Shown: positions 25,039 to 54,845, counted from the stretch's first letter. The stretch is DNA of 64,000 nucleotides from Escherichia coli (GCF_003790525.1 NZ_CP033635.1); one strand, 5' to 3'. A program made the numbers and translations. Notes: generated from the sequence alone by a model not told the origin.

Positions 25039-25041
25039 GAG

Positions 25042-26853: not shown

Positions 26854-26971
26854 TACCGAACGCCGGAGAACTGGACGACGACACCACGAAGCAGTCATTT
26901 CAGTCGGGGGATGATTGTAGACAAATTTGTTGACGCTATTTTGCGGTTTTGGCGTGAAGGGTGAGCATTCA

Positions 26972-27613
26972 TTAATTTGCATCCATCAACGCTTTTAACT
27001 GCTCCGGCGAAAACGGTGGTTTGCGTCGGTGCAACATCGCATGGCAATTAGGGCACACAGGAAGCAAATCATTAACTGGATCCAGCTGGTAATCCTCTTT
27101 AATGGCTGAAAGCGGCACCAGGTGATGCATATGGATAAAACCCTCAGCGATATCGCCATAGATCTTCACCAGATCAACGCCGCATACGTTGCACTGGCAT
27201 CCATGATGTTCGACCGCTTTATCTCGGGCCTTTTTATCGCGTTCATAGCGGTTTACTGTCACCTTTATCGCCGCACCTTCAACGTATGTCTCCTGCGACG
27301 GCAACTCATCCGGGAACAGAACGTCGGCTATGGGAGCCGCAGCGGCTTTATCCTGATGAATATGAAATCCCTGCTCTATGAGTAGTTTGACGCATTTAGA
27401 TTTTATTCCGCCGGTGAAATCCGCAGGGGTAAATTGCGTCCCCGTCATCAATGTCGCTGCGATGCCAGCAATCGCCTTCGAGGGGTAACGTCGGCCATGA
27501 TATTCAATCTTATACAACCGCGCAGGCTGGAACTGATGAGTTTCTCCCGCATCCCATAAATGGATAGCTTCGATGATATACCGCCGCGGAAGATGATCGG
27601 GGAGTTTATTCAT
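26972..27613 (-). CDS. HNH endonuclease-domain protein with unassigned N-terminal domain
   Basis: 213 aa ORF with C-terminal HNH-type motif CQCNVCGVDL...HMHHLVPL...PVCPNCHAMLH. Divergent from the next gene. Confidence 0.5.
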   Translation of the reverse strand: MNKLPDHLPRRYIIEAIHLWDAGETHQFQPARLYKIEYHGRRYPSKAIAGIAATLMTGTQFTPADFTGGIKSKCVKLLIEQGFHIHQDKAAAAPIADVLFPDELPSQETYVEGAAIKVTVNRYERDKKARDKAVEHHGCQCNVCGVDLVKIYGDIAEGFIHMHHLVPLSAIKEDYQLDPVNDLLPVCPNCHAMLHRRKPPFSPEQLKALMDAN

Positions 27614-27692
27614 GGAGAATGTCCTTATACGTTCTCAGAACAGGCAGCAAAAAAACAAATGAGATCAAGGTAATATATCTTCACTTGCAGGC

Positions 27693-28622: not shown

Positions 28623-28733
28623 GGTTGATAACTATCGCGTCCCTATAATCTTGCCATCTCGTGCATTGAGATGTTAAAAGCTACAAATGTTCTCCCTATT
28701 TTTCAATGTAGACATTTATAGCAATATCAAAAT

Positions 28734-39054: not shown

Positions 39055-39229
39055 AACATTCTCCCTCTGAGACGGAAGCCACTATAGTACTCGCCCGCCA
39101 ATTAAGCAAAGAAACTTTGCTTAATTTTTATTTATAGCAATGTTATTTGTTTTGATGTCATTCGCCTTCTATACTCAGTCGGTATATCAAACCGCAATTG
39201 ATTAACCTGCAAATAAGAATAAAACTGAT

Positions 39230-40123
39230 ATGTACTACTCAAAGTTTCTTGAGAAACACAAATCCCCCCTCAGCCACGCACAATGGTTGCGCTTGCGCTA
39301 TATTGAGCGCCAGCTACTGTGGGAACGAAAGGTCACTTCGCGCATGATTGCTGAAGAGTTTGGCGTCTCGGCGCAACAAGCTCGTACTGATGTAAGAACC
39401 TATATGGAGGTCGCTCCAGGCAATGCTATTGAGAAGGGGGCCGGCCGAAAAGGGTATTTCCCCAGTACGACGTTTACGCCTGTTTTGCTGGGAGACAACG
39501 ATCTGGTCTGGCGTACGACGGTAGAATTTCAACCGCCGCAAGCGGCCCACGCGCAGGAAATCCCGCTCATCCATCGCGCAGTGCATAGCCGCACGCTGGC
39601 AATTTTTTTGTCAGCAATCGAACAGAAAGGACAAGTAAAAGTGACTTATGCGTCAATGGAAAACCCGGAAGGCATATCTCGTACACTAAGCCCTACGGTA
39701 ATTATCACCGTTAACGGGCGTCAGCATGTGCGAGCCTATGACTGGGGAAGTTCGGCGTTTAAGGACTTTGTTTTGGCGCGATTTCTGGACTTGCCGGAAC
39801 TGATTGTTCCTGCACCCGCCCCGCCACGCAAAGATACCGCGTGGGAGGTCATAATCCCCGTGCGTTTTATAGCCAATCCAACACTAAACAAAGCGCAACA
39901 AGAGGTAATTAAGCGGGACTATTTACTTGAACCCTCTGAATTCAACATTCGTGCACCAATGATTTTTTATTTATGCCCTGAAAACAATCTGCCTAAAACA
40001 GATGATGAATATGCACAAGCTACTGACGCCAGCAGCCACGGCCCCTTTATCTACCCTGTTCTAGCTGTGCACGCCCAAACAGGGGAGCCTATTCATAAGT
40101 ACCGCCATGCAGGTGAGAGATAG
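39230..40123 (+). CDS. Candidate HTH/WYL-domain transcriptional regulator, divergent from the Wadjet operon
   Basis: 297 aa ORF with an N-terminal HTH-like segment (SRMIAEEFGVSAQQARTDVRTY) and a central region resembling a WYL domain. Divergently transcribed from the jetA-like gene with a 175-bp shared intergenic region. Confidence 0.4.
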   Translation: MYYSKFLEKHKSPLSHAQWLRLRYIERQLLWERKVTSRMIAEEFGVSAQQARTDVRTYMEVAPGNAIEKGAGRKGYFPSTTFTPVLLGDNDLVWRTTVEFQPPQAAHAQEIPLIHRAVHSRTLAIFLSAIEQKGQVKVTYASMENPEGISRTLSPTVIITVNGRQHVRAYDWGSSAFKDFVLARFLDLPELIVPAPAPPRKDTAWEVIIPVRFIANPTLNKAQQEVIKRDYLLEPSEFNIRAPMIFYLCPENNLPKTDDEYAQATDASSHGPFIYPVLAVHAQTGEPIHKYRHAGER

Positions 40124-40269
40124 ACATTCTGTTTACTAATAATTTATAGCCATTCACTGTTCCTGCATCATAGATATGGTGCAGCAACATTAAACACCAG
40201 CCATCTAAAAATTATGATTTATTAATTTCTGATTCAGTTAAATTCCTCTGAAAATAGATCCGTTATAGT

Positions 40270-40530
40270 TCCATGCATCTTTTGAAATCCCGACCAAATA
40301 ATGGGGTCGGCAAACATCTATTTGAGACGTTGGTTCTCATCCTCAAGATCTTTGATTATTTTAATATCAGAAGATTCCATACCACCGTATCTGGACTTCC
40401 AGTTGTAGTAAGTGGCTCAGAGAAGCCTGCCTCCCGGCAGACATCTTTAACAGTTCGCCCGTATTCAAGCGATTTAATCACGGCGATAATCTGATGCTCA
40501 GTAAAAGGGGCTTTACGCATAGCGATCTCC
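40270..40530 (-). pseudogene. IS3-family transposase OrfA remnant (frameshifted and truncated)
   Basis: Minus-strand translation MRKAPFTEHQIIAVIKSLEYGRTVKDVCREAGFSE..., then a frame break, then ...DIKIIKDLEDENQRLK*. Only about 260 bp of the element remains. Confidence 0.5.
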
Positions 40531-40594
40531 TTCATTGGCAGATTGATTATGCCGGAGGATCTCTAAATGTTAATGGCACGATTATGCGGGATAT

Positions 40595-41500
40595 TTACAA
40601 TACCAGTCCAACCCTCAGCTTACTGCAATGCCCATCAAGAGGGATGGTCCACATTGACGTATCAAAATCGCTCTCTGACCAGCGAGCAAAACGCAGCTCA
40701 CTGGATCGAATAAAGATAAGCAGAGTGAGTTCTGTCGCCCAGCGGGTTAGCGGCCTGCCGGTATAGCTGTCTATTTTCTCAAGTAACTCAGGGATGCGCT
40801 TTAACTCCAGCGCCGGACGATGCTGTCGATTACTGGAAGCAACCGCCCCCGCCATCTCCTGCGCCGGATTGTAATGAATTAACCCGCTTTGCACTGCATA
40901 ACGCATGATGGCCGTGGTGCGCTGTTGAAGGCGGGAAGCCACTTCAAAACGTCCAGATTTCTCCACGGCTTTAATGGGAATTAACAGATCGCGGGTGCCC
41001 AGTTCAGCAATATTGCGAGCACCAATTGTTGGGAAGATATTGTCCTCCAGGCTCTTTTTTCCACGATTAGCATGATCTTCCGACCATTTTTGGTTTGTCA
41101 CGAGCCACTCTCTGGCAACCTTCTCGAAAGTAATAATCTCTTTCGCCTGCTCTTCTTTCACAGCACGTTTATGCTCACGAGGATCGATACCAGCAGCGAC
41201 CAGCTTTCTGGCCTCTTCCCTTTTCTTCCGCGCATCCGCCAGCGAAACATCCGGGTAAACGCCGAACGCCATCAAATGTTGTTTACCACCAAAACGGAAA
41301 CGAAATCACCAATACTTTGAACCGCCAGGTTTTACAAGTAAAGACATGCCGTCGCCGTCAACAAGTGAATACTCTTTCTCCTCTGACTTCACAGAACGAA
41401 CTTTAGTATCCGTTAGGGCAATAATGGTCTTCCTTCCATTGGTATCTCGTGAGTATACAAGCAATATCGAATCGGCAAATATACTCATAAGTATACTCAC
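40595..41500 (-). pseudogene. P4-type tyrosine integrase, decayed (frameshifted, catalytic C-terminus missing)
   Basis: Two ORF fragments: 41306-41500 (...LTDTKVRSVKSEEKEYSLVDGDGMSLLVKPGGSKYW) and 40595-41275 (...GVYPDVSLADARKKREEARKLVAAGIDP...RFARWSE...). Both resemble the N-terminal two-thirds of the intact integrase at 51562-52815. Confidence 0.6.
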
Positions 41501-41622
41501 AAGCCTGTTGATGTGGGTTGAGTCAGGTTGACTTCAGTTGAGAAGAAAAGCTGGAAAAGCCTTGCGTGGCGCGGATTTCAGGCATAAAAAAAGACCTCAG
41601 TTGAGGTCTATTTACATACTTT

Positions 41623-41645
41623 TGGTGCGAAGGCCGGACTCAAAC
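41623..41645. repeat. Degenerate copy of the leuX 3' end (att remnant / tandem-island junction)
   Basis: tggtgcgaaggccggactcaaac matches the leuX 3' end tggtgccgaaggccggactcgaac at 52979-53002 except for one deletion and one substitution. Confidence 0.6.
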
Positions 41646-41847
41646 ATCAAAATAAGTTAATGATAAAAAACAAATAATAAAACACAACAATGAAATATGC
41701 CCCCTTTTGTGCCCCCACTGTTTTTCTGACCAATCTATTTTCAGCCCATCAATAAATCGGAAAGTTAAATCATTTTTAATCAGTAAGTTTGGATCCGTAG
41801 CTCGGCTCCAAACCAGTGCATCTTTTATCCACATAAAAAATTTTTTT

Positions 41848-42135
41848 TCGAAAGAACTGTTCACACTGTTCACCTTTCTGTTTTCTCCTTTTATTTCATA
41901 GTGATAGGTGGTGAATAATGGGTGAAGGGTGAACATTCGATTCTTCACCTCCGGCATTCTGCCGGTGTGACTTGTGCAGGGGATTAATTTCCCGTGCTGA
42001 AATCACACCGGAAGAAAAAAGTTTTTTTTGATTTGATTGTTCACACTGTTCACCTTTCGTTTTTCTCTTTTAATTTCAGTGTGATAACGGGTGAATATAC
42101 GGTGAAGGGTGAACAGTGGATTGTTCACCTTCGGG
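41848..42135. repeat. P4 crr-like cis-replication region: two roughly 110-bp direct repeats carrying TGTTCACC iterons
   Basis: Near-identical units at about 41848-41950 and 42020-42135 separated by about 70 bp. Each contains TGTTCAC(A/C)CTGTTCACC and inverted GGTGAA copies. Confidence 0.6.
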
Positions 42136-42146
42136 GAATTCAGGGA

Positions 42147-42172
42147 TAAAAAAAGACCGGCAGATGCCGGTC
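42147..42172 (-). terminator. Intrinsic terminator downstream of the alpha gene
   Basis: GACCGGCA..TGCCGGTC hairpin followed on the minus strand by a T7 run, a few nt after the alpha stop. Confidence 0.55.
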
Positions 42173-42179
42173 AGGTGGG

Positions 42180-44513
42180 TCAGGCTGTTGCAGGGTCGTC
42201 ACATTTTGGCAGCCAGTCGCCGTAGCTTTCCTCTTTCAGCGTCAGGTTGGTCTGTATCCCCTGTTTGGTATGGCGCTTCTCGTAATTCAGTCCGTATTCC
42301 TTCAGCATCACCGGCAGCCCCAGCCCGAACATTTTCAGACTGAGTACATTCCGGTAGCCGTTTGCCTCCATGTAGGCCAGATAGGCGTGATAGAGGTATT
42401 TACGGTAATTGCGCGGGATGATACTGGCGTTCCCCATATACATGCCGCTGGTCTGCGGCAGGGTTTCCAGATAGCCGATAAAATCAAACGTCGGGTCGGC
42501 ATCCCGTTTGATGTTCAGTGCCTCGTCTGAGTTCTGCTGGGACTGAAGCAGTGACCGGGCGAGCATCGGGTCGCTGAACTTCTGCATCAGGTGACGCACG
42601 ATGACCGCCAGCTCGCGGGTGATTTTGTCCTTAAGCTGCGGGTCGCGCTCCTGCGGGGCTATCTGTTCCGGGAAGTGAATAATCACCCGCCGGCGTGACA
42701 CGCCGCCGCTGCGGTCGGTGAAGCGCATCGGGTTATTGTTCACGGCCAGAATTACCGCCGGGATATGCGTGGAGTATGCATCCCGGTATTTCGGGTCAAC
42801 GGACACCGCATCGCCGCCGGTGATGGCCTTGAGTCCGGCACCGTCGCCGCTCCATTTTTCCTGGTCCGGCAGGCGTATCAGTGAGAAGCCAGTTAACGCG
42901 GCACGTTCACGCGGGGATTCCAGCGTCTCGATGGTGGCCGACGTGGCGTTATCCTCCCCGGCCAGCAGGGTGGCTATTTCGGCCATGATACTTTTGCCGC
43001 TGCCGCCGGGACCGGTCACCTCCAGAAAGAGCTGCCAGTCGTAGCGGTTTGCCAGCACCATAAACAGTGCGGCCAGAATCACGTCGCGTTTTTCCGCACG
43101 GCCACCGGCGGCACGGTCAAGCCAGCACCAGAACGCGGGGGCGTGGGTCTCCAGCGTTTCACCGTCCACCGGCGGGGTGAAATCCACATCGCACAGGGTG
43201 CGCATCCAGTGTGACGGACTGTGCGGGTGGAACGTGCCGTTCTGCGTGTCGAGCACGCCGTTACGAAAGCCAATCAGGCGGCGGGAGGGGGCTTCCTGCT
43301 GCGGAATAATCAGCTTCAGGGTGTCCACCACGGAGGCCACCTTCCCGGAGGAGAACGGCGCGCGCAGACGCTGAAACAGCCCGGCCACATCCCGGGCAAA
43401 GTCCTGTGGTGGCAGCACCTTCCAGACACCATTTTCATAACGGGACAGAAGCTGGCCGTTGGCATCGACCGCGAGCGCCTCGCCGTAATGCTCATAGATA
43501 CGCATGGCCTTTTCGCTGGTACTCATGGCGGAAAACTCCGCTTCACTCATGGTGTCGAACGGGCTTTCAGCCGGTGGCCGGATGGCATCGTAAATGGCCT
43601 TACGGGTGGCCTCCCCGCCGTACTGCGTGAAGGCATCATTCCAGTCACCGAAGACCGGTGGCAGGGCAACAACACCTTCACACGCATCTGCGGCTGCGGC
43701 GGCTTTTTTCTGGCCATCACCGCTGAGGTCACGGTCAGCGGCAAGGACAATCTGACAGGCGGGGTGCTTCTGCCGGGCAAGGCTGGCCAGAGAAAGGAGG
43801 TTCACGGAAGAAAGCGCCACCATCACCGTTTCACCGGTCAGGTGATGCACGGTAAGTGCGGTCGCGTATCCCTCCGCTATCCACAGACGTTTTCCGGCCT
43901 GATTCTGTCCTTCAAGGATGTGACAGGTGCCCCTGACCTGTCCGCCTTTCAGGGTGCGCTTACGGCCGTCAGCACTGATTAACTGAAGGTTAACCAGTTC
44001 GCCGCTGTCGTCATACAGTGGCACCACAAGGTCACCGGCGCGCCAGCTCACGCCACCGGCTCTGTGTGTGCCGGTCAGCATCCGGCATTCCCGGCCGGGA
44101 AAGCCCTTGCGGGTCAGGTAGGCGTTACCGGTTCCGGGACGGGTTTTCGCCATCAGGGTTTGTGCCAGTGCGGCGGCGTTCTTCCGGGCAGCGTCTGTTT
44201 CAGCACCGGCGGCAGCCGTCACTGCCGGGTCAGCCGGGGGCAGGCTGCCGGTCACGGCAGCCACCTTTGTGGCCGCGTCGGACGGGGAGACACCAAACAC
44301 CTTTTCAACCAGTTTCAGGCCGTCACCGGCACCACACTGATTGCAGTACCAGGTGCCGCGCCCCTCCCTGTCATCAAAACGGAAGCGGTCACTCCCGCCA
44401 CAGACCGGACAGGGCTGATGACGGTTCTTCAGCACCTGAATCCCCAGCGCCGGGAGAATACGCGGCCAGTGGCCGAGCGCATGGCTGACGGTGGCGGTTA
44501 CGTTCATTTTCAT
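42180..44513 (-). CDS. alpha: P4 alpha-like primase-helicase
   Basis: 777 aa ORF with an N-terminal zinc-binding primase motif (CPVCGGSDRF...YCNQCGAGDG), next to the TGTTCACC iteron clusters. Confidence 0.8.
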   Translation of the reverse strand: MKMNVTATVSHALGHWPRILPALGIQVLKNRHQPCPVCGGSDRFRFDDREGRGTWYCNQCGAGDGLKLVEKVFGVSPSDAATKVAAVTGSLPPADPAVTAAAGAETDAARKNAAALAQTLMAKTRPGTGNAYLTRKGFPGRECRMLTGTHRAGGVSWRAGDLVVPLYDDSGELVNLQLISADGRKRTLKGGQVRGTCHILEGQNQAGKRLWIAEGYATALTVHHLTGETVMVALSSVNLLSLASLARQKHPACQIVLAADRDLSGDGQKKAAAAADACEGVVALPPVFGDWNDAFTQYGGEATRKAIYDAIRPPAESPFDTMSEAEFSAMSTSEKAMRIYEHYGEALAVDANGQLLSRYENGVWKVLPPQDFARDVAGLFQRLRAPFSSGKVASVVDTLKLIIPQQEAPSRRLIGFRNGVLDTQNGTFHPHSPSHWMRTLCDVDFTPPVDGETLETHAPAFWCWLDRAAGGRAEKRDVILAALFMVLANRYDWQLFLEVTGPGGSGKSIMAEIATLLAGEDNATSATIETLESPRERAALTGFSLIRLPDQEKWSGDGAGLKAITGGDAVSVDPKYRDAYSTHIPAVILAVNNNPMRFTDRSGGVSRRRVIIHFPEQIAPQERDPQLKDKITRELAVIVRHLMQKFSDPMLARSLLQSQQNSDEALNIKRDADPTFDFIGYLETLPQTSGMYMGNASIIPRNYRKYLYHAYLAYMEANGYRNVLSLKMFGLGLPVMLKEYGLNYEKRHTKQGIQTNLTLKEESYGDWLPKCDDPATA

Positions 44514-44527
44514 GGTGTTGTTCTCCT

Positions 44528-44848
44528 TCAGTGCAGTACCGGCGCTTTTATGTGACGGGCACAGAGTTCATCCATCACAACCAGCCCGAGAAAGGACAGC
44601 GACGGCGCGGCCTTCAGGGGGCCGGATTCCATTAAATCTTCCAGCAGGGCACAGGCTATCTGACGCCCTTTTTCCTCACCGTGCTGGCGCAGATAAAAGC
44701 CTTCCAGCTCAGCGGCGATGGCCGCCTCCAGTGACTCAAGGGTGAGATGCGGGTAGCGGTGCTGACGTTCGCACACGGTCAGCCAGGCACAGGCGACAGC
44801 GCGACGGTAAAGGGCAGCGCGTAAGACGGGCGGTAAGGGTGTTTTCAT
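44528..44848 (-). CDS. Small P4-type protein (orf106/Cnr-like), function uncertain
   Basis: 106 aa ORF immediately upstream of alpha in the same operon. Confidence 0.45.
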
Positions 44849-44983
44849 TTGTTTTCCTCCCTGTGACAGATGACTGCATTCCGTGCCGGTTGCATTAACT
44901 GATAAGGCATATCTGCGTCTCCTGAAGACGTGCGTATCCCTGCGCGAATACGCACATTTAATTTTTCGGGTGTCGTTTTTTAA

Positions 44984-45439
44984 TTACAGATAATTGCGGT
45001 AACTGTTATCCGGGGTGATTTCCGGGTCAGGCTCCGTGCGGGGAATTTCCCGCCATTCCCGCGCCACCGGTGCCGCCCGGCTGACCGGAACAGTGTCCTG
45101 CGGGTAAATATCCAGATATTTCTCCCGCCATTTCTGTAATTCCGGGTCTCCGGCCATTTCTTTCAGTACCGCATGCCGGTTTACGGGGCTGCGTTTGAAC
45201 AGGTCAGGACGGTCACAGGTAAATTCCCGCAGAAAACGCCCCAGCGGGATGTCTGTGGTGCGCCCGTCGGCGAGGATACGCACAAGGATACTGAATTTAC
45301 GGCGGTACGGGTTCCAGACAATGTCCGGGCAGCGGTACGGCATTTCCCACGGAATACCGTCTTCCAGAATGCCGACCACGGCCACATCGGGAAAACCGGC
45401 AGAACGGTAAATCTCACCGGGCTGGGGAAAATCAAACAT
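44984..45439 (-). CDS. P4 orf151-like protein
   Basis: 151 aa ORF in the epsilon-alpha operon position. Confidence 0.45.
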   Translation of the reverse strand: MFDFPQPGEIYRSAGFPDVAVVGILEDGIPWEMPYRCPDIVWNPYRRKFSILVRILADGRTTDIPLGRFLREFTCDRPDLFKRSPVNRHAVLKEMAGDPELQKWREKYLDIYPQDTVPVSRAAPVAREWREIPRTEPDPEITPDNSYRNYL

Positions 45440-45719
45440 GCGTCCTGTCTCCCCGGTCTTTCTGCTGGGCGAGAAAATCGCGGCACAGGCCTTTGGCTTT
45501 CAGCTCATTCAGCACAAAATCAATATCTTCATTCAGGTAGCTGAAAATATGCGGAATGTAGAGCTGATGCAGGCCGGAGAGTTCACGGTGAATCAAATCA
45601 CCCCCAACAAACTGGGATACGGCGCTGGCGCGGTTGAGCTTATGGTAAGCCTCAATGCTGAGGTGTTCACGGGCGTCATGACGCGCTGAGACGGTCTGAG
45701 GGGCTTTTTTATTACGCAC
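45432..45719 (-). CDS. P4 epsilon-like small protein (putative GTG start)
   Basis: 95-codon frame beginning at a GTG at 45719..45717 ([20 protein letters not shown]...). The longer track ORF 45432-45959 has an implausible N-terminal extension. Confidence 0.35.
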
Positions 45720-46298
45720 GGGACACCTCCACCACCGGCAGACGGGCAGCAAGGGAGAGCACATAGTCACGGACAAGGGAACGGCGGGCGCTGCGTTCAT
45801 CACCGGCGACGGTGCGAAGCATGCAGATACGGGGATGACGGTCTGCGCGACGGACAGCCGCAAACACAAAGACAAATTCAGGGTGTGAGGGGGTAAGGGT
45901 TGTAGCCATAAGGCAGCCTCCTTCGAGTAGCAAATAACTGCTATCGCCGGAGTTCTCACGCTCGATGGCGATAGCCCAGACGGGGGTGAGAATACCGGCC
46001 TCGAAGAATACCGGCCAGCCCGGAGGCTGCCCCGCCTGAGCTACCATTGACTCAGTGGCATAACATGCGATTGCGAACAGGATAATACCTGCACGGCAAA
46101 CCACACGCCACACCATAATCTGGCGCTCTGTGGCGTTGATTGCGACACAAAAAAAGACGCATGGCGCGTCATATGTCGCCTTCGAGTTACACGGGTTCTC
46201 ACGCCCGGCTGCCGATTTTGCGGCAACGGAAAGACTATATCCGCAAATGCCGGAAAAAGGCAAGCCAGAAAAAGGGAGTTTTTGCAGAGCGGGCATCA

Positions 46299-46565
46299 TC
46301 ATGCGTCATACCCCCGTTTGCGTCCGGCAATGCGGCCGGCCATCCATGCGGTGACTTCAGAGTGCAGCCAGGCCACATTTTTACCGCCAAGACTCACCTG
46401 CGGCGGAAATTCCCCCTTACGGATGAGTTCGTAGATGGTCGAGCGTGACAGGCCGCACAGGTGCATCACTTCCGGAAGACGCAAAAAACGCTCCTGTGTG
46501 ATGTCCGGCTGCGGCATCAGTGGCGTCACAGGGGCGGGAGACGGGGAAGAAAAAACAGCTTGCAT
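46299..46565 (-). CDS. vis: Vis/AlpA-family small DNA-binding regulator
   Basis: 88 aa ORF with an AlpA-type HTH ([26 protein letters not shown]), at the head of the leftward operon. Confidence 0.6.
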
Positions 46566-46844
46566 CGGGCTACCTCGTTAATGTCCATACAGCACCGGAT
46601 AAGTCTGTCCGGCTTCGGGTAGCGCTTTATTTTGTGAATATTTTCAGCAGACGCAACAGGGGGGATTTGTTCCGGCAGCCTTACAATGCTTGTGTGTTTT
46701 TTGTTCATCTCCACTTAAAGTCATTTAAAGCCACTTAAAGCAATTCGTAATTTTTATAGTGAAATACAAATCGTTTTTTCTTATTCATTCCCGGCGAATT
46801 AATAAAAACAAACAGTAGTAAACAGCACAAAAAGCCCATCAACG

Positions 46845-46948
46845 GGTGAACAGTGGTGAACAGACGGTGAACAGTCATTACTGCGATTGTTCACCCTTTA
46901 ACTTACTGTATTACTTATCTTTTTTCTTATGGCGAACAGAGGTGAACA
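46845..46948. repeat. ori-like iteron cluster (GGTGAACAG repeats)
   Basis: Three tandem GGTGAACAG copies at 46845-46874 with 1-2 bp spacers, an inverted TGTTCACC at 46888-46895, and further copies at 46932-46948. Confidence 0.5.
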
Positions 46949-47117
46949 GTAAAATATAAAAAAACAAACAGTAAGACGGTTTTTCCTGCGACCTTTTCCT
47001 GGCTTGCCGGTGTGAGGATGAGTCTCCTGTGTCAGGGCTGGCACATCTGCAATGCGTCGTGTTGTTGTCCGGTGTACGTCACAATTTTCTTAACCTGAAG
47101 TGACGAGGAGCCGGAAA

Positions 47118-47852
47118 ATGTCTGACAACACCATCCCTGAATATCTGCAACCCGCGCTGGCACAACTGGAAAAGGCCAGAGCCGCCCATCTTGAGAACGC
47201 CCGCCTGATGGATGAGACCGTCACGGCCATTGAACGGGCAGAGCAGGAAAAAAATGCGCTGGCGCAGGCCGACGGAAACGACGCTGACGACTGGCGCACG
47301 GCCTTTCGTGCAGCCGGTGGTGTCCTGAGCGACGAGCTGAAACAGCGCCACATTGAGCGCGTGGCACGCCGGGAGCTGGTACAGGAATATGACAATCTGG
47401 CCGTGGTGCTGAATTTTGAACGCGAACGCCTGAAAGGGGCGTGTGACAGCACGGCCACCGCCTACCGGAAGGCACATCATCACCTGCTGAGTCTGTATGC
47501 AGAGCATGAGCTGGAACACGCCCTGAATGAAACCTGTGAGGCGCTTGTCCGGGCAATGCATCTGAGCATTCTGGTACAGGAAAATCCGCTCGCCAACACC
47601 ACCGGGCATCAGGGCTACGTCGCACCCGATAAAGCTGTCATGCAGCAGGTGAAATCATCGCTGGAACAGAAAATAAAACAGATGCAAATCAGCCTCACCG
47701 GCGAGCCGGTTCTCCGGCTGACCGGACTGTCAGCGGCAACACTCCCGCACATGGATTATGAGGTGGCAGGCACACCGGCACAGCGCAAGGTGTGGCAGGA
47801 CAAAATAGACCAGCAGGGAGCAGTGCTTAAGGCCAGAGGACTGCTGTCATGA
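47118..47852 (+). CDS. sid: P4 Sid-like capsid size determination protein
   Basis: 244 aa from the internal ATG (MSDNTIPEYLQPALAQLEKARAAHLENARLMDE...). Stop overlaps the delta start (ATGA). Confidence 0.75.
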   Translation: MSDNTIPEYLQPALAQLEKARAAHLENARLMDETVTAIERAEQEKNALAQADGNDADDWRTAFRAAGGVLSDELKQRHIERVARRELVQEYDNLAVVLNFERERLKGACDSTATAYRKAHHHLLSLYAEHELEHALNETCEALVRAMHLSILVQENPLANTTGHQGYVAPDKAVMQQVKSSLEQKIKQMQISLTGEPVLRLTGLSAATLPHMDYEVAGTPAQRKVWQDKIDQQGAVLKARGLLS

Positions 47853-48349
47853 TTTACTGCCCGTCGTGTGGACATGTTGCTCACACCCGTCGCGCACATT
47901 TCATGGACGATGGCACCAAGATAATGATTGCACAGTGCCGGAATATTTATTGCTCTGCGACATTTGAAGCGAGTGAAAGCTTTTTCTCTGACAGTAAAGA
48001 TTCAGGAATGGAATACATTTCAGGCAAACAGAGATACCGCGATTCACTGACGTCAGCCTCCGGCAGTATGAAACGCCCGAAAAGAATGCTTGTTACCGGA
48101 TATTGTTGTCGGAGATGTAAAGGCCTTGCACTGTCAAGAACATCGCGGCGTCTGTCTCAGGAAGTCACCGAGCGTTTTTATGTGTGCACGGATCCGGGCT
48201 GTGGTCTGGTGTTTAAAACGCTTCAGACCATCAACCGCTTCATTGTCCGCCCGGTCACACCGGACGAACTGGCAGAAAGCCTGCATGAAAAACAGGAACT
48301 GCCGCCAGTACGGTTAAAAACACAATCATATTCGCTGCGTCTGGAATGA
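47849..48349 (+). CDS. delta: P4 Delta-like late-gene activator (tandem Ogr-type zinc fingers)
   Basis: 166 aa ORF with two zinc-finger modules (MIYCPSCGHVAH...CRNIYC and CCRRCKGLAL...CTDPGC). Confidence 0.8.
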   Translation: MIYCPSCGHVAHTRRAHFMDDGTKIMIAQCRNIYCSATFEASESFFSDSKDSGMEYISGKQRYRDSLTSASGSMKRPKRMLVTGYCCRRCKGLALSRTSRRLSQEVTERFYVCTDPGCGLVFKTLQTINRFIVRPVTPDELAESLHEKQELPPVRLKTQSYSLRLE

Positions 48350-48422
48350 GGGCTGCCGGTTAACACCGGCCGTCGCCGCACACCGTATTTTTATTCTTCA
48401 GCATGATGAGAAAGAGATAACG

Positions 48423-48995
48423 ATGGAAAGCACAGCCTTACAGCAGGCCTTTGACACCTGCCAGAATAACAAAGCAGCATGGCTGCAACGCAAAAATGAG
48501 CTGGCTGCGGCCGAACAGGAATATCTGCGGCTTCAGTCCGGGGAAGGCAGAAACGTCAGTCGCCTTGACGAATTACGCAATATTATCGAAGTCAGAAAAT
48601 GGCAGGTGAATCAGGCCGCCGGTCGTTATATTCGTTCGCATGAAGCCGTTCAGCACATCAGCATCCGCGACCGGCTGAATGATTTTATGCAGCAGCACGG
48701 CACAGCACTGGCGGCGGCACTGGCACCGGAGCTGATGGGCTACAGTGAGCTGACGGCCATTGCCCGAAACTGTGCCATACAGCGTGCCACAGATGCCCTG
48801 CGTGAAGCCCTTCTGTCCTGGCTTGCGAAGGGTGAAAAAATTAATTATTCCGCACAGGATAGCGACATTTTAACGACCATCGGATTCAGGCCTGACGTGG
48901 CTTCGGTGGATGACAGCCGTGAAAAATTCACCCCTGCGCAGAACATGATTTTTTCGCGTAAAAGTGCGCAACTGGCATCACGTCAGTCTGTGTAA
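48423..48995 (+). CDS. psu: P4 Psu-like polarity suppression protein
   Basis: 190 aa ORF, third gene of the sid-delta-psu late operon. Confidence 0.75.
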   Translation: MESTALQQAFDTCQNNKAAWLQRKNELAAAEQEYLRLQSGEGRNVSRLDELRNIIEVRKWQVNQAAGRYIRSHEAVQHISIRDRLNDFMQQHGTALAAALAPELMGYSELTAIARNCAIQRATDALREALLSWLAKGEKINYSAQDSDILTTIGFRPDVASVDDSREKFTPAQNMIFSRKSAQLASRQSV

Positions 48996-49368
48996 AATTC
49001 CCCGAAAATCCGCCCGTTTTTACTGAAAAAAGCCATGCATCGATAAGGTGCATGGCTTTGCATGCGTTTCCCTGCCTCATTTTCTGCAAACCGCGCCATT
49101 CCCGGCGCGGTCTGAGCGTGTCAGTGAAACTGCATTAAAACCGCCCCGCAAAGCGGGCGGGCGAGGCGGGGAAAGCACTGCGCGCATGATATAAAAGAGT
49201 ATTAAGAATTTTACAGAAACAGCTAATACAGACGCTGAAGTAAAATCATTGAGACCATTCGTGATTTGATGCAAAAAATTGCACAACATAAGCTCCTATG
49301 GTTCATAGTAATACTATTAAACCTATCTTTTCGTTGGTATATTACCCATTTTGTAATGGAGAATTGAA

Positions 49369-51501
49369 ATGCTTTCTACTCAGGATATAAACGGTTTTTT
49401 TAATGCTGTTGACTCTCTCAAAAGGTTTAAACGAGCAGAAATAAGGGACAACAAAGATAAACCACTTATTGATTCACTTTACACAGATCTATTGCCAAAC
49501 AATCACGTCTTCAAAATGTGCTACGGGGAAAACACTACATTTTTAATTGGAAGAAAAGGCACAGGAAAATCCACAATAATTCTTAAACTTGAAAGTGAGT
49601 ACAGAAAAGAATCTTCATACCTCCCATGCTATATAGATACAAAAACAGTATTCGAAAGTGTTAGAGGTGAGTATCAAAAAATAGACTACCTAAAAGGGAA
49701 GATACCTGAAGAGCATCTAGAAAAATATTTAGTCGAGCGTGCATTCATTAAAAACATCTTGAAATCAATCGGTGACGAATTGAATATTCGAGCAGAAAGC
49801 ATATTCTCAAAACTAGCAGGGATTGTTAATGCAAGCAAAAAACAAGCGGTAAAAGCAAAAATAACAAAACTACTTTTAATGGTGGACAATAACCAAATAA
49901 TAAAAGAAATTGAAATACCCGTAATAACAGAAGTAAATACTAAACTTACTAAGGCGAACGAATCAGAAAATGGAACTACCCAAAACTATAACTCTGAGCT
50001 AACTGTAAAAATCGGAACATCACAACATGAAGGTGGTGGAAAAATAGGAGCGGTAAAAGGAATCACCTCAAGACAGAAAAACAATGACGCTTGGGAAAAG
50101 AGTTTCTCTACAGCCCTTCTAAAGGTTTTTCAAATCACATCAGTAATTGAAGAAATTAAAATCATATTAAGAGAGCTAGGAGTAAAAAAGCTTGTAATAT
50201 TTTTAGACGATTTCTCTGAAGTTGAAGAGAAGACGCTAAAAAACTTCGTCGATGTTGTACTTGCTCCGCTAAATAACTGGGCTAATGATTTCATTTGTTT
50301 TAAAGTCGCTGCCTACCCAAGTCGCATATATTATGGCGACATTGATGTTGGCAAAATAGATGTGGTAAATTTAGATTTTTATAATTTATATTCTAATTAT
50401 GATAAATCTACGATGGAATCCTTATCAGCTGACTTCACCAAGAGACTTTTAAATCAAAGGCTTAATCAGTTTTGCACATTGAAGTTTGAAGATTATTTTG
50501 ATACATCTTCAGCTACTCCAGAAGAGTACTATGATCTTATATTTAAAGTATCCATGAATGTCCCTAGAATTATAGGATACATTCTTTATTACTGCCATCA
50601 AACCAATGTATCTCTTGGCAGAAAAATAAATAAAGGCTCAATCGAGAAAGCAGCTCAGACTTATTATGAGCAAGTTGTATCTAAGTTTTTCGATATTGCC
50701 ACGCATAGTCTGATGTCTTTCAGTGAAAAAGTTTCTGAACTTCAGCAAAAAGAGATTCTAAATCTCTTCGTTCAGAAATTAAAAACGATTAAGCGACAAA
50801 TAATAACAAATGAACTAACTGGCACAATTTACAATAGAGACAGAACAAATCCTTATTGTAGTCATTTTTATTTTCAACCTAATCTTGAACATTTTCTGCG
50901 TACATTGGAGCTTAATTTCTTCATTACCAAATATAATGAATTAGTAAATAAAGACGGAAACAAGGTCTCGATATATGGAATAAATTATGGATTAGCTCGA
51001 AGTGAAAACCTCAAATGGGGAAAACCTGAAGGTAATCAGTTCCGTAGTTATTTCGTAGAAAGACCATTTGATTTCAACAAAGATATCGAAGATTTCTTAA
51101 GAGAATCGAAAAAAATCGTATGTCTTAATAGCTCTTGTGATAAAACCTATCCATATGAAGAACTTGCATTTCTTGAATATAATAAAATGAGATGTATTGA
51201 ATGCCAGTCGCCTGTTGAAGTAAGATCGTTTTCTGAAAGTATCAGTTCTGAAATATCTAAAATTGACAACGCTAAACTTTTACCAAAATTAGAATTAATG
51301 ATATTACATGAACTGAATAAGGCAGACGATCATCTCCTAGCTCGAGACATTGCTGAGGAACTAGACGCTTCATCACAATTAATTGCCAAACGGGCTGAAA
51401 AATTAGACAGAAAAGGTCTTGTTTTTAGAGATAAAAGTGATGCATTAATTAAGTATTCAATAACAAATAAAGCAGTAGAAGGTTATTTCTATGATGACTA
51501 A
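49369..51501 (+). CDS. Uncharacterised P-loop NTPase with C-terminal zinc ribbon and winged-helix-like domain; candidate anti-phage defence gene in the P4 psu-int hotspot
   Basis: 710 aa ORF, conspicuously AT-rich compared with flanking P4-like genes. Walker A LIGRKGTGKST, Walker B-like LVIFLDDFSEVEE, Cys4 cluster CLNSSCDKTYPYEELAFLEYNKMRCIECQSP, and a C-terminal wHTH-like segment. Confidence 0.6.
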   Translation: MLSTQDINGFFNAVDSLKRFKRAEIRDNKDKPLIDSLYTDLLPNNHVFKMCYGENTTFLIGRKGTGKSTIILKLESEYRKESSYLPCYIDTKTVFESVRGEYQKIDYLKGKIPEEHLEKYLVERAFIKNILKSIGDELNIRAESIFSKLAGIVNASKKQAVKAKITKLLLMVDNNQIIKEIEIPVITEVNTKLTKANESENGTTQNYNSELTVKIGTSQHEGGGKIGAVKGITSRQKNNDAWEKSFSTALLKVFQITSVIEEIKIILRELGVKKLVIFLDDFSEVEEKTLKNFVDVVLAPLNNWANDFICFKVAAYPSRIYYGDIDVGKIDVVNLDFYNLYSNYDKSTMESLSADFTKRLLNQRLNQFCTLKFEDYFDTSSATPEEYYDLIFKVSMNVPRIIGYILYYCHQTNVSLGRKINKGSIEKAAQTYYEQVVSKFFDIATHSLMSFSEKVSELQQKEILNLFVQKLKTIKRQIITNELTGTIYNRDRTNPYCSHFYFQPNLEHFLRTLELNFFITKYNELVNKDGNKVSIYGINYGLARSENLKWGKPEGNQFRSYFVERPFDFNKDIEDFLRESKKIVCLNSSCDKTYPYEELAFLEYNKMRCIECQSPVEVRSFSESISSEISKIDNAKLLPKLELMILHELNKADDHLLARDIAEELDASSQLIAKRAEKLDRKGLVFRDKSDALIKYSITNKAVEGYFYDD

Positions 51502-51561
51502 ATAGAAACTAACAATGAAAAGCTCAACGCTGATTCTAGGGCGTTGAGCTACTTAATAATT

Positions 51562-52815
51562 TTAGATCCTAGCAAAATCATAGGCCGTAATATTTTGATA
51601 TCGATTAATATCTAGATAGTCAGCCCACCATTGCATCATCAAACGACGCTCTTCTAAATGCTCTGAAGTATGAATATAAGCTGCGCGTACATTGTTACGT
51701 TCTGAATGGCTCAATTGACGTTCTATCGCATCATCACTCCATAGTCCCGATTCCCCCAACGCCCCGCGTGCCATAGTCCTAAAACCATGGCCACATACTT
51801 CTGTTTTTGTGTCATATCCCATTACACGCAATGCATTGTTTACCGTATTTTCACTCATAACCTTAGTTGCGTCATGATCGCCCGGGAAAAGAAAGTCTCT
51901 ATCACCACTAATCTGCTTAAGCTGTTCTAACAATATAATCGCCTGTCGGCTAAGCGGAACTATATGCTCCTCTTTCATTTTCATGCCACGATACGAGTAA
52001 CGTACGCCTTTAATTTCTTCTCGTTTAGCAGGAATACGCCAAGTAGCGTTATCAAAATCAAATTCTTTCCAACGAGCAAAACGTAATTCACTTGAACGAA
52101 CAAAAGTTAGTAAAGAAAGCTCAACCGCAATTTTCGTCATCATACGCCCACGATATACATCAAGACGTGCCAAGAACTCATGGAAACGATGTGATGGTAG
52201 CGCCGGGTAGTGCCGCGTTTTCGCCGTAGATAACGCACCGGCCATATCAATTGCAGGATTTGAGTCTACATAATCGTTCTGAACAGCATAGCGCATAATA
52301 GCAGTGACACGTTGCTGAAGACGCTGCGCTACATCATGCTTACCACTGGCATCAACTTTTTTTATCGGTGCCAAAAGGTGACTAGTTTTAAGCTGTCGAA
52401 TATCAGACGAGCCAATATAGGGAAAGATATAAAGCTCTAGATAGCGAAGAACCCGTGCCCGATGTTCCTCACTCCAACGCTTATTGCTGGCATGCCATTC
52501 ACGAGCAATAGTTTCAAAATTATAAGCACCAGCATTAACTGCTTGGGCCTCTTTCTGTACTGCTTTTGGATCTATACCTTGCACCAGCAACTTTTTGGCT
52601 TCATCCCTTCTAGCTCTAGCTTCAGCAAGCGTCACAGTCGGCCAAACACCAAAAGCAAGACGATCCTCTTTTTTGTCGGAAGGTCGTCTATATTTCATAC
52701 GCCAATATTTAGAGCCTTTGACAGAAACCTCGAGGTACAAACCGCCACCATCGGCCATTTTATAGGTTTTATCTTTTGGCTTTGCGGTCTCGACCTGTCT
52801 GGCGTTGAGCTTCAT
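51562..52815 (-). CDS. int: P4-type tyrosine integrase (IntB-like), intact
   Basis: MKLNARQVETAKPKDKTYKMADGGGLYLEV... with a complete C-terminal catalytic region (...HGFRTMARGAL..., ...HSERNNVRAAYIHT). Begins about 165 bp from the leuX 3' end, in the same orientation. Confidence 0.85.
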   Translation of the reverse strand: MKLNARQVETAKPKDKTYKMADGGGLYLEVSVKGSKYWRMKYRRPSDKKEDRLAFGVWPTVTLAEARARRDEAKKLLVQGIDPKAVQKEAQAVNAGAYNFETIAREWHASNKRWSEEHRARVLRYLELYIFPYIGSSDIRQLKTSHLLAPIKKVDASGKHDVAQRLQQRVTAIMRYAVQNDYVDSNPAIDMAGALSTAKTRHYPALPSHRFHEFLARLDVYRGRMMTKIAVELSLLTFVRSSELRFARWKEFDFDNATWRIPAKREEIKGVRYSYRGMKMKEEHIVPLSRQAIILLEQLKQISGDRDFLFPGDHDATKVMSENTVNNALRVMGYDTKTEVCGHGFRTMARGALGESGLWSDDAIERQLSHSERNNVRAAYIHTSEHLEERRLMMQWWADYLDINRYQNITAYDFARI

Positions 52816-52978
52816 TTGGGGGCACATCCCTAATCGAAGTTAAGATGCCCCCAATTATGCCCCCAATGACATCCGGATTTCAACGTACAACCTCGGACGA
52901 CTCGGGACGTTAAAATCACTGCAAGCATTGATTTTTAAGGAATTATTGGACTTTCTCGGATGGTCTAGGAAGTGCTTA

Positions 52979-53063
52979 TGGTGCCGAAGGCCGGACTCGA
53001 ACCGGCACGTATTTCTACGGTTGATTTTGAATCAACTGCGTCTACCGATTTCGCCACTTCGGC
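52979..53063 (-). tRNA. leuX: tRNA-Leu (anticodon CAA), leuX
   Basis: Reverse complement reads GCCGAAGTGGCGAAATCGGTAGACGCAGTTGATTCAAAATCAACCGTAGAAATACGTGCCGGTTCGAGTCCGGCCTTCGGCACCA, an 85-nt class II tRNA with CAA anticodon and encoded CCA. Confidence 0.9.
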
Positions 53064-53258
53064 ACTGAAGAGGTATGCGGAAAACGTTGTGGATTATACC
53101 TGTCGCACGCCACCATGCAAGCGCCAGCTTGCTCGCATCTCGCTAAGTGCTGAAATTTTCAGCATTACACTCAGCGATGTGTAACCTTTGTCACACTCCA
53201 GGCACCCCGCCCTGCCATGCTCTACACTTCCCAGACAACACCAGAGAAGGACCAAAAA

Positions 53259-54278
53259 ATGTCGATGATAAAAAGCTATGCCGCAAAAGAAGCGGGCGGC
53301 GAACTGGAACTTTATGAGTACGATCCCGGTGAATTGAAGCCACAAGATGTTGAAGTGCAGGTGGATTACTGCGGGATCTGCCATTCCGATCTGTCGATGA
53401 TCGACAACGAATGGGGATTTTCACAGTATCCGCTGGTTGCCGGGCATGAGGTGATTGGTCGCGTGGTGGCGCTCGGGAGTGCCGCACAGGATAAAGGTTT
53501 GCAGGTCGGTCAGCGTGTCGGGATTGGCTGGACGGCACGCAGCTGCGGGCATTGCGATGCCTGTATTAGCGGTAATCAGATCAACTGCGAGCAAGGTGCG
53601 GTGCCAACAATTATGAATCGCGGCGGTTTTGCCGAGAAGTTGCGTGCGGACTGGCAATGGGTGATTCCGCTGCCAGAAAATATCGATATCGAGTCCGCCG
53701 GGCCGCTGCTGTGTGGTGGTATCACGGTCTTTAAACCACTGTTGATGCACCATATCACTGCTACCAGCCGCGTTGGGGTAATTGGTATTGGCGGGCTGGG
53801 GCATATCGCTATAAAACTTCTGCACGCAATGGGATGCGAGGTGACAGCCTTTAGTTCTAATCCGGCGAAAGAGCAGGAAGTACTGGCGATGGGTGCCGAT
53901 AAAGTGGTGAATAGCCGCGATCCGCAGGCACTGAAAACTCTGGCGGGGCAGTTTGATCTCATTATCAATACTGTGAACGTCAGCCTCGACTGGCAGCCTT
54001 ATTTTGAGGCGCTGACGTATGGCGGTAATTTCCATACGGTCGGTGCGGTTCTCACGCCGCTGTCTGTTCCGGCCTTTACGTTAATTGCGGGCGACCGCAG
54101 CGTCTCTGGCTCTGCTACCGGCACGCCTTATGAGCTGCGTAAGCTGATGCGCTTTGCCGCCCGCAGCAAGGTTGCGCCAACTACCGAACTGTTCCCGATG
54201 TCGAAAATTAACGACGCCATCCAGCATGTGCGCGACGGTAAGGCGCGTTACCGCGTGGTTCTGAAAGCCGATTTTTGA
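53259..54278 (+). CDS. ahr: NADPH-dependent aldehyde reductase Ahr (YjgB), zinc-type alcohol dehydrogenase
   Basis: [45 protein letters not shown]... with zinc-ligand and GxGxxG motifs. Internal start preferred over the track start at 53217. Confidence 0.9.
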
Positions 54279-54281
54279 AAA

Positions 54282-54845
54282 TCATTCGCAGCGCTGATCT
54301 GAGGCGCTGCCCCCTTTCGCACATATTCTGTCTTGTCGTATCGCCAGCACGGCCTGCCGACATTGTTCGGTGACATTGGCAATATCATGGTTGATATCAA
54401 TGCGCACAATATCCTGTTCATCTGCTTGTGGACGCTCCAGCGCCTCAAACTGACTTTTTAGTAACGCTACCGGCATAAAATGCCCAGCCCGCCGCTGCAT
54501 TCGCGCGAGAATAGTTTCATAGTCGCCATCTAACCAGAGGAAATGAACATGGGGGCTACCCTTGCGTAAAATATCACGATACTGTTTTTTTAATGATGAA
54601 CAGACAATAAATCCTGTTTCATTCTTTTTATAAAGACTGTATGAAGCATCATTTAAGCGTTCCAGCCAGGGAAGTCGATCTTCATCAGATAATGGAATAC
54701 CCTGCGACATTTTATCTATATTTTTGGCTGGATGAAGATCGTCACCATCAATAAATTTAGCAGATAATAACGTGGCAACCTTGCTACCAATTAATGTTTT
54801 ACCACTCCCTGAAACGCCCATCAAAATAAAGCTTTCACCCGCCAT
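54282..54845 (-). CDS. idnK: Gluconokinase IdnK
   Basis: MAGESFILMGVSGSGKTLIGSKVATLLSAKFIDGDDLHP... (P-loop), divergent from idnD. Confidence 0.9.
   Translation of the reverse strand: MAGESFILMGVSGSGKTLIGSKVATLLSAKFIDGDDLHPAKNIDKMSQGIPLSDEDRLPWLERLNDASYSLYKKNETGFIVCSSLKKQYRDILRKGSPHVHFLWLDGDYETILARMQRRAGHFMPVALLKSQFEALERPQADEQDIVRIDINHDIANVTEQCRQAVLAIRQDRICAKGGSASDQRCE

Follow-up and report, generated by a model that had tools for sequence, protein, structure and literature searches.

The region at positions 41623-53063 of the window, the whole 64 kb stretch of Escherichia coli DNA that was analysed, is with high confidence a complete satellite prophage of the P4 family, which appears to have been inserted at the 3' end of leuX by its tyrosine integrase, is expected to follow a P4-like life cycle and carries a foreign cargo gene. 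The element measures 11,356 bp between its att cores, and P4-like satellites at leuX are an already known and very common kind of element. BLASTN comparison with P4 (NC_001609) revealed that positions 41623-49186 correspond, in the same order, to P4 4078-11624 followed by 1-27, with 97.9% nucleotide identity over 7548 aligned columns, and that the int-att segment retains 83% nucleotide identity, values which reflect homology to P4 rather than chance. Colinearity extends from attL through cos and resumes from int to attR; the two elements share the order and content of att, crr, alpha, orf106, orf151, epsilon, kil, CI RNA, vis, ori, sid, delta, psu and cos, as well as the integration site (leuX), the attP arm sites and the cohesive end (Table 1).

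All eleven backbone proteins are full length and 90-100% identical to those of P4, the lowest value being that of Int and the remainder lying at 97.7-100% amino acid identity, and comparison with the P4 proteins revealed no frameshift or premature stop in any backbone gene. The integrase is composed of three Pfam domains (Arm-DNA-bind_3, Phage_int_M and the catalytic domain) and its R, HxxR and Y motifs match those of P4, whereas its gene is 83% identical to P4 int at the nucleotide level and the C-terminal tail differs (421 aa here, 439 aa in P4). The Psu, Delta and Sid capsid-hijack operon retains the gene order of P4. The seven markers by which SatelliteFinder defines P4-like Type A satellites (PMC10085698), namely Int, Psu, Delta, Sid, AlpA/Vis, epsilon and alpha, are all present (7/7), and the satellite is apparently functional as judged from its sequence. 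A degraded integrase and a large defence island are found in tandem with the element.

A sequence-only reading of the same DNA had proposed a P4-like element bounded by a repeat of the leuX 3' end and by leuX itself, and every feature that it listed was located between these repeats: a crr-like double repeat, a 777 aa alpha primase-helicase, small epsilon- and orf151-like genes, an 88 aa Vis-like regulator, an ori-like iteron cluster, a sid-delta-psu operon specifying 244, 166 and 190 aa, one cargo gene, which is the single ORF of the variable segment, and an intact integrase, the catalytic motifs of which are indeed kept. Whole-element alignment to P4 agreed with this proposal in that the likeness is colinear and reaches beyond a few genes, while the backbone genes are free of inactivating mutations. 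Its description of the element as near-complete requires amendment, as the element is complete because only the known variable slot differs from P4, and its statement that the gene set is exactly that of P4 held for the backbone but not for the gop-beta-cII module, which is replaced by an unrelated cargo gene. The CI immunity RNA, the Icd-like kil ORF and the cos site are additional to the features of that list.

Table 1. Features of the P4-like element and its attachment sites (window coordinates; a point in the strand column marks features without orientation).
Feature	Position	Strand	Comparison or content
attL core, TGGTGCGAAGGCCGGACTC	41623..41641	.	displaced copy of leuX 3' end, one C fewer than attR/leuX
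Two Int arm-type repeats, crr side of att	41695..41718	.	12/12 and 12/12 identical to P4 4151-4174
crr cis replication region	41835..42134	.	two 120-bp direct repeats, 41835-41954 and 42015-42134
alpha primase-helicase, 777 aa	42180..44513	-	99.0% identical to P4 alpha
orf106 (DUF5375)	44528..44848	-	100% identical to P4
orf151	44984..45439	-	99.3% identical to P4
epsilon (Ash), helper derepression protein, 95 aa	45432..45719	-	98.9% identical to P4
kil-position ORF, 65 aa, Icd-like cell-division inhibitor domain	45712..45909	-	
CI immunity RNA	45964..46051	-	Rfam C4 antisense RNA, 74.3 bits (gathering score 45)
Left (PLE) operon leader with seqA target CUCGAAGG and terminator	46150..46240	-	matches Rfam isrK and c4-a1b1
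vis (orf88, AlpA-type excisionase and regulator), 88 aa	46299..46565	-	97.7% identical to P4
Divergent late-promoter and ori region	46668..47083	.	
sid, capsid size-determination scaffold, 244 aa	47118..47852	+	98.8% identical to P4
delta, Ogr/Delta zinc-finger late activator, 166 aa	47849..48349	+	98.2% identical to P4
psu, polarity suppression and capsid decoration protein, 190 aa	48423..48995	+	99.5% identical to P4
cos packaging site	49118..49186	.	flanks of the cohesive end 91-94% identical to P2 cos
Variable (hotspot) segment replacing P4 gop-beta-cII	49187..51575	.	2.4 kb, GC 32.6% against 55% in backbone
Cargo gene, 710 aa	49369..51501	+	predicted P-loop AAA+ ATPase, zinc ribbon, winged helix
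Integrase, 421 aa	51562..52827	-	90% identical to P4 Int over residues 1-414
Three Int arm-type repeats, int side of att	52816..52866	.	each 12/12 identical to P4
attR core, TGGTGCCGAAGGCCGGACTC	52979-52998	.	leuX 3' terminal 20 bp; 20/20 identical to P4 attP core
leuX tRNA-Leu(CAA)	52979..53063	-	

The sites on which replication, late transcription and packaging would depend are similarly well preserved. All ten type-1 octamer iterons of crr (10/10) are identical to those of P4, while the ori, at 46711-46948, comprises three type-2 decamers and six type-1 octamers, eight of these nine repeats being identical to P4 and one octamer differing by 1 nt. Three late-promoter TGT-N12-ACA sites are conserved at 46668, 47028 and 47066, the homologous positions in P4 being 9133, 9493 and 9531. 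Five of the six Int arm sites are identical to P4 and one differs. The 19-nt cohesive end of cos, GGCGAGGCGGGGAAAGCAC (49160-49178), is identical to that of P4, and the cos site is predicted to be compatible with the P2 terminase.

By homology with P4, the CI RNA of the lysogen is expected to be processed from the PLE leader and to base-pair, via its seqB loop, with seqA and seqC; transcription of the left operon (kil, epsilon, orf151, orf106 and alpha) would thereby be terminated and its translation blocked. In the presence of a P2-like helper, P2 Cox or Ogr together with the Delta protein of the satellite would switch on the late promoters via the TGT-N12-ACA sites, Vis and Int would excise the element, alpha would replicate it from ori and crr, and epsilon would derepress the helper; Sid would then build a small capsid, decorated by Psu, into which the helper terminase would package the 11.4 kb genome from cos. 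Actual excision, exploitation of a helper and the function of the cargo are matters that we infer.

Immunity is likewise predicted to be RNA-based and to operate through the CI RNA, upstream of which a 9-nt deletion is found relative to P4. The seqB loop of this RNA reads UCUUCGAG where P4 has CCUGUGAA, so that the seqA/seqB determinants are CUCGAAGG/UCUUCGAG here as opposed to UUCACAGG/CCUGUGAA in P4, and seqC, with which the ribosome-binding site of the kil-position ORF overlaps, is changed jointly. Cognate pairing of seqB with seqA and seqC amounts to 8-9 bp, whereas the seqB of P4 pairs over only 3-4 contiguous nucleotides with the seqA and seqC of this element. The specificity class differs from that of P4, to which the element would be heteroimmune, and the joint change of seqA, seqB and seqC with retention of cognate pairing shows that the immunity circuit is still under selection.

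The gop-beta-cII segment of P4 is non-essential, and tblastn yielded no match to gop, beta or cII in the window; its place is taken by one unrelated gene encoding 710 aa. The product is an AAA+ ATPase of ORC/Cdc6-like type that also contains a zinc ribbon and a winged helix, and in which Walker A occupies residues 61-69, Walker B residues 280-284, a four-Cys zinc ribbon residues 585-612 and a C-terminal MarR-like winged helix residues 641-688; Walker A, Walker B and the four Cys residues are invariant across 46 homologues. Cdc6/Orc1 and the ORC subunits were the best fold matches and the RADAR ATPase RdrA the second-best, with Foldseek E values of 5e-5 to 1fnn and 4e-4 to 8hra at low TM-scores (0.22-0.26 on the query). 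An AAA+ core followed by a winged helix is common to the cargo, the ORC/Cdc6 ATPases and RdrA, whereas sequence-level similarity and an RdrB-like partner gene are lacking and the cargo possesses an additional zinc ribbon and a middle domain of roughly 150 residues without a match.

Searches for a family to which this protein might be assigned returned little. PADLOC-DB v2.0 provided weak wHTH matches only (E of at least 2e-4), PHROGs no match, Pfam nothing beyond weak ATPase and wHTH matches, NCBIfam a sub-threshold assignment to the 'Sll1717 family ATPase' (37 bits against a cut-off of 75), the sequence search of the PDB a wHTH match only, and a literature search on Sll1717 found nothing; neither the defence nor the phage libraries recognise the protein, and none of these searches linked it to a named defence system. 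The RefSeq name, MarR family transcriptional regulator, was rejected, as MarR_2 covers only residues 641-688 of 710 (E 1.8e-4), and the protein is not a full-length MarR (a dimeric wHTH of roughly 150 aa) because its remainder consists of an AAA+ ATPase and a zinc ribbon. Comparison by BLASTP and hhalign with Reve, a single-gene ATPase system described in a 2026 preprint (10.64898/2026.02.27.708500), was not significant and showed the two to be unrelated, the Reve ORF having been taken from Dataset E1 and presumed from its position just before UnknownSys8. A promoter and terminator scan around the cargo gene identified nothing above shuffled expectation.

The cos-int slot of P4-like satellites has been shown experimentally to be a defence hotspot (PMC9122126), and the element shares both its architecture and its variable slot with E. 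coli P4-like satellites that possess such a psu/cos-int hotspot (PMC9122126; de Sousa et al. 2023, PMC10085698; preprint 10.64898/2026.02.27.708500). In that preprint, protection against phages was conferred by six of eight unknown P4 cargo loci picked at random. The present cargo was not found among the systems tested in those studies, and its 16- to 20-mers are absent from the files of synthesised sequences of the preprint; WP_042346724, the cargo protein of strain Ec42, is entered in Table S1A of Rousset et al. 2022 (PMC9122126), where it forms a single P4 locus labelled 'hypothetical'. TIR-NLR, EcoO109I-type R-M or Kiwa genes are found in sister elements integrated at this site. In a Yersinia P4-like element the slot is filled by a homologue with 74% identity, and further homologues are patchily distributed in Vibrio, Shewanella, Bacteroidota and cyanobacteria, where they adjoin other mobile elements.

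The likeliest role of the cargo is that of a single-gene factor in anti-phage defence or MGE competition, its defence role being read entirely from this context. The more specific proposal, that it constitutes an undescribed single-gene anti-phage system spread patchily through Proteobacteria, Bacteroidota and cyanobacteria and moved by P4-like satellites, is quite possible and is advanced tentatively. It appears rather unlikely that the gene instead provides the satellite with a regulator or replication-type factor for plasmid-state maintenance or helper interference. Such a role would accord with replication initiators heading the fold matches, with the DNA-binding winged helix and zinc ribbon, with the RefSeq name and with the failure to detect a nuclease, TIR, SIR2 or any other effector domain in the cargo, but P4 and most P4-like elements lack the gene (it is carried by 8 of 5426 genomes), so the satellite life cycle does not require it. 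The low GC content of the segment relative to the backbone, the scattering of homologues beside mobile elements in a pattern typical of defence genes and the rank of RdrA among the fold matches also favour the anti-phage or competition factor.

Concerning mobility, comparison with two strains was instructive. Relative to Ec42, the element itself differs by 2 SNPs but sits in a different chromosome, with an unrelated left flank and approximately 70 SNPs over 4 kb of the right flank. Relative to HS4 (HS4/2D), there are no differences left of 41648 or right of 52977, yet the otherwise identical HS4/2D chromosome harbours a different P4-like element with 1.6% backbone divergence and a different cargo. 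In both comparisons the att cores mark the exact points at which the sequences switch, and whole-element exchange ending at att with 0 SNPs outside it (HS4) fits site-specific integration and not homologous recombination in the flanks. The element is probably still mobilisable by a P2-like helper, as the sequence-only reading had supposed, a view strengthened by the intact cis sites and by strain exchanges that terminate at the att cores.

Compared with that of P4, the crr-side att core lacks one C. This single-C form is shared by 5/5 other E. coli genomes, 6/6 IMG/VR contigs and 55 of 56 metagenome contigs, where it adjoins at least eight different host flanks, and IMG/VR contains no crr flank joined to the CC version of the core. 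Its presence beside so many flanks implies that it arises at each integration rather than being a one-off scar, and we argue that it is a family-wide trait and not decay; decay that locks the prophage in place was rejected as an explanation of the 1-nt difference by the recurrence of the same form in these genomes and contigs. The near universality of the single C raises the lesser possibility that P4-like attP sites in nature depart from the P4 reference of 1987 and that strand exchange is located in the terminal TGGTGC (the GCACCA end of the tRNA), not in the T-loop. For the O157 leuX element, PMC2669165 contains no excision data. It is very improbable that the region is a domesticated, immobile P4-derived island which has lost excision, is kept for its cargo and is inherited vertically or by recombination in the flanks: an attL 1 nt away from attR within a 20-bp core, the occupation of leuX by P4-like elements in many E. 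coli (in 95 of 5426 genomes, coverage of the locus reaches at least 80%) and the finding of no P2-like helper prophage within the 64 kb window would suit such an island, but the distribution of the single-C attL, the strain exchanges bounded by att and the intact state of all genes and cis sites speak against it.

For annotation, these 11.4 kb would be labelled a complete P4-like satellite of Type A with a hotspot cargo rather than a cryptic remnant or a 'MarR regulator' locus. The element illustrates, as a routine case, that E. coli strains whose chromosomal flanks are identical differ in their leuX satellite and hence in their cargo. The cargo is the sole part of the element able to teach something new, belonging as it does to a large, conserved and unnamed family that adjoins mobile elements, and this gene represents a reasonable candidate for a cloning-and-challenge screen.

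Among 50,697 phage records searched by megablast, phage P4 (NC_001609) was the sole extensive match to the satellite prophage at leuX, and the whole-element alignment for which the sequence-only reading had called (see table) bears out its P4-like character. Pairwise BLASTN against NC_001609 gave no counterpart in the window for P4 28-2675 (gop, beta and cII), and none in P4 for window 49187-51575. The att cores lie 11,356 bp apart, compared with 11,624 bp for P4, a length that would fall inside the packaging range of a P4-size capsid, and none of the seven core markers by which PMC10085698 defines Type A P4-like satellites is missing. The element, previously described as near-complete, is better termed complete. 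It is an ordinary and already catalogued one, which had been correctly identified and well described: P4-like satellites are reported from 26-44% of E. coli (PMC9122126), and coverage of the present locus reaches 80% or more in 95 of the 5,426 complete E. coli genomes searched.

Features of the P4-like element, its P4 alignment and its left neighbourhood
Feature	Window position	Sequence or P4 counterpart	Comparison with P4
Aligned segment	41623-49159	P4 4078-11624	97.9% identity, 144 mismatches, 5 gap openings (BLASTN)
cos junction	49160-49186	P4 1-27	aligned (BLASTN)
Aligned segment	51576-53002	P4 2676-4101	83% (BLASTN)
attL core, repeat of tRNA 3' end	41623-41641	TGGTGCGAAGGCCGGACTC	
attR core, terminal 20 bp of tRNA-Leu(CAA)	52979-52998	TGGTGCCGAAGGCCGGACTC	
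crr 120-bp repeats	41835-41954 and 42015-42134		
seqA		CUCGAAGG	P4: UUCACAGG
seqB (CI RNA loop)		UCUUCGAG	P4: CCUGUGAA
seqC (over ribosome-binding site of first ORF)		CUCGAAGG	P4: UUCACAGG
alpha			99.0% identity (tblastn)
orf106			100% identity (tblastn)
orf151			99.3% identity (tblastn)
epsilon			98.9% identity (tblastn)
vis			97.7% identity (tblastn)
sid			98.8% identity (tblastn)
delta			98.2% identity (tblastn)
psu			99.5% identity (tblastn)
Cargo gene (+)	49369-51501		
Defence island	24331-40123		
WYL/BrxR-like regulator	39230-40123		
Type III Wadjet jetA, 298 aa ORF in jetB position, jetC, jetD	29859-39054		
PDC-S11 candidate	28734-29732		
HNH/type IV-like nucleases	26972-28622		
Type II Zorya zorB2/zorE	24331-26145		

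The ORFs between the att repeats, with products of 777, 106, 151, 88, 244, 166, 190, 710 and 421 aa, agree with the earlier description of alpha, a Vis-like regulator, sid-delta-psu and an integrase. With P4 proteins as tblastn queries, the backbone matches were full length and without stops. The claim that P4 has exactly this gene set holds for these shared backbone genes but not for the cargo gene, which P4 lacks. Int is 90% identical to P4 Int over residues 1-414 and possesses arm-binding, central and catalytic domains (Pfam); its short C-terminal tail, downstream of the catalytic tyrosine motif, differs. The blocks TFVRSSELRF, GHGFRTMARG and VRAAYIH are unchanged. A 196 aa ORF at 45712-46302 was rejected as an artefact that reads through an RNA gene, the true gene here likely being an Icd-like ORF of 65 aa that begins at 45909. 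A 105 aa ORF (41640-41957, minus) overlaps the att arm sites and crr and is equivalent to P4p05 (GeneMark-only); it gave no family matches, part of it is named 'integrase' by RefSeq in strain Ec42, and it is probably not a gene.

Annotated P4 features were mapped onto the window to compare cis-acting sites. The crr-like double repeat noted earlier is present as two 120-bp copies, in which all ten octamers are the same as in P4, as are three of three type-2 decamers and five of six type-1 octamers of ori (the remaining octamer having one mismatch). Five of the six Int arm repeats match P4 at 12/12 positions, the 19-nt cohesive end GGCGAGGCGGGGAAAGCAC is the same, and three TGT-N12-ACA sites, the late-promoter activator sites, occur at positions homologous to P4 9133, 9493 and 9531.

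The sole tRNA of the window is tRNA-Leu(CAA) (52979-53063, minus; ARAGORN, with Rfam in agreement), and the element is indeed flanked by the leuX 3'-end repeat and leuX. The attL core is one C shorter than attR, leuX and the P4 reference attP. An inactivating scar or decay was rejected as the explanation, as the same form is widespread across elements, contigs and host flanks: each of the other five E. coli leuX elements compared has it (three different cargos, two different left flanks), as do 6/6 IMG/VR contigs and 55 of 56 metagenome contigs, in which eight or more distinct host flanks are represented. No crr arm with the CC form attached was found in IMG/VR. The near-invariable attL reading in P4-like elements (window 41623-41641 and loci L003-L069) is TGGTGCGAAGG. 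It is implausible that one mutation should recur identically in DNA of host origin, and the most economical explanation would therefore be that the single-C sequence belongs to the crr-side arm of natural elements themselves, which suggests that strand exchange may occur left of the single-C position, within TGGTGC (the tRNA terminus GCACCA). One host lineage (L008, L015 and other loci) has GGTGCGAA in three tandem copies at attL. Also, 27 nt to the left of attL (41570-41596), in the leuX terminator region, are 89% identical to 42132-42158 (crr end and alpha terminator), a similarity that may be fortuitous or may reflect a common origin of the P4 att-crr region and host DNA downstream of leuX.

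As a correction to the sequence-only reading, the element has a defence island and a second, degraded integrase of P4 type directly to its left. The integrase is truncated (40595-41422, minus; 49% identity to P4 Int residues 5-266) and is a pseudogene with an internal stop in the sister-genome annotation; leuX therefore carries a tandem array: the intact satellite and, beyond it, an older island that is degraded. Within the defence island, PADLOC gave no match for the 298 aa ORF that occupies the jetB position; further left, strain 2D possesses giant DEAD/DEAH-box helicase and DNA methyltransferase genes. A 1.3 kb insertion (31300-32614), missing from strain 2D (100% identical in this stretch apart from it), encodes an IS256-family transposase (402 aa, 31334-32542) with an 8-bp overlap at the junction. 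Because it cuts jetC off at residue 1357 of 1478, the Wadjet system of the window is probably inactive.

Comparison with other E. coli strains bears on mobility. Strain 2D matches the window at 100.000% identity over 1-31299 and at 99.6% over 32615-43251. Strain HS4 has the same flanks, with no differences left of 41648 or from 52979 to 54500, and its P4-like element carries a TIR-domain gene; between 41648 and 52979 the backbone differs by ~1.6% and int by ~8%, and the cargo is unrelated. The Ec42 element has identical cargo and int and two differences along 7.6 kb of backbone, its right chromosomal flank has ~70 differences in 4 kb, and its left flank is non-homologous. From these alignments, the unit moving between chromosomes ends exactly at the att cores, as would be expected if a transduced satellite integrated site-specifically.

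The 710 aa cargo protein contains Walker A (GRKGTGKST) and Walker B (LDDFSE) motifs, four invariant cysteines (C585, C590, C609 and C612) and a C-terminal wHTH with a MarR_2 match (E 1.8e-4, residues 641-688 only). Its AlphaFold2 model (mean pLDDT 83, pTM 0.78) best matches, at low TM-scores, Cdc6/Orc1 (1fnn, E 4.9e-5), the RADAR ATPase RdrA (8hra, E 3.7e-4) and ORC subunits, with MarR-type winged helices at the C-terminus. PADLOC, PHROGs and PDB sequences yielded no useful match, no effector domain was recognisable, and identity with the single-gene ATPase system Reve (10.64898/2026.02.27.708500) was rejected on sequence comparison. None of the 849 database homologues (E <= 0.001; mostly ~710 aa; from Enterobacterales, Vibrio, Shewanella, Bacteroidota and cyanobacteria) has a functional name. 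A mobile accessory role is supported by the low GC content (32.6% against 55% for the backbone) and by homologue contexts: a 74% identical homologue in Yersinia enterocolitica follows the Ogr/Delta gene of a different P4-like element, while those of Vibrio cholerae and Sphingobacterium adjoin a filamentous prophage and base-hypermodification genes, respectively. The cargo occurs in eight of 5,426 complete E. coli genomes, always in the same slot, three of them being partial segment matches (51-64%). Since this slot is a defence hotspot (Rousset et al., PMC9122126, whose Table S1A already lists WP_042346724, the cargo protein of the Ec42 element, as an untested 'hypothetical' locus) and six of eight randomly picked unknown P4 cargo loci protected against phages (10.64898/2026.02.27.708500), a defence function is likely but unproven.

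A further correction concerns immunity, which is RNA-based and, judging from its pairing determinants, of a class different from P4. Rfam places a C4 antisense RNA, a family that includes the P4 CI RNA, at 45964-46051 (74.3 bits, the gathering score being 45), and the leader at 46150-46240 matches the isrK and c4-a1b1 target models. Differences from P4 are concentrated at 46000-46200 in a non-random pattern. Among 17 related elements there are five immunity classes, across which seqA, seqB and seqC (window 45919-46190) covary perfectly three-way; cognate seqB-seqA/C pairing spans 8-11 contiguous bp, against at most 7 bp, mostly 3-5 bp, for non-cognate pairs. Such triple compensatory change, as read from the alignments, shows the circuit to be under selection and implies that the element would be heteroimmune to P4. 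Immunity specificity is known to vary among P4 relatives, as in retronphage phiR73. Strains HS4 and RM11911 share the element's class, while the O157:H7 FRIK944 and O170:H18 elements belong to another; that of O170:H18 nevertheless carries the same cargo and int, and immunity and cargo modules therefore reassort.
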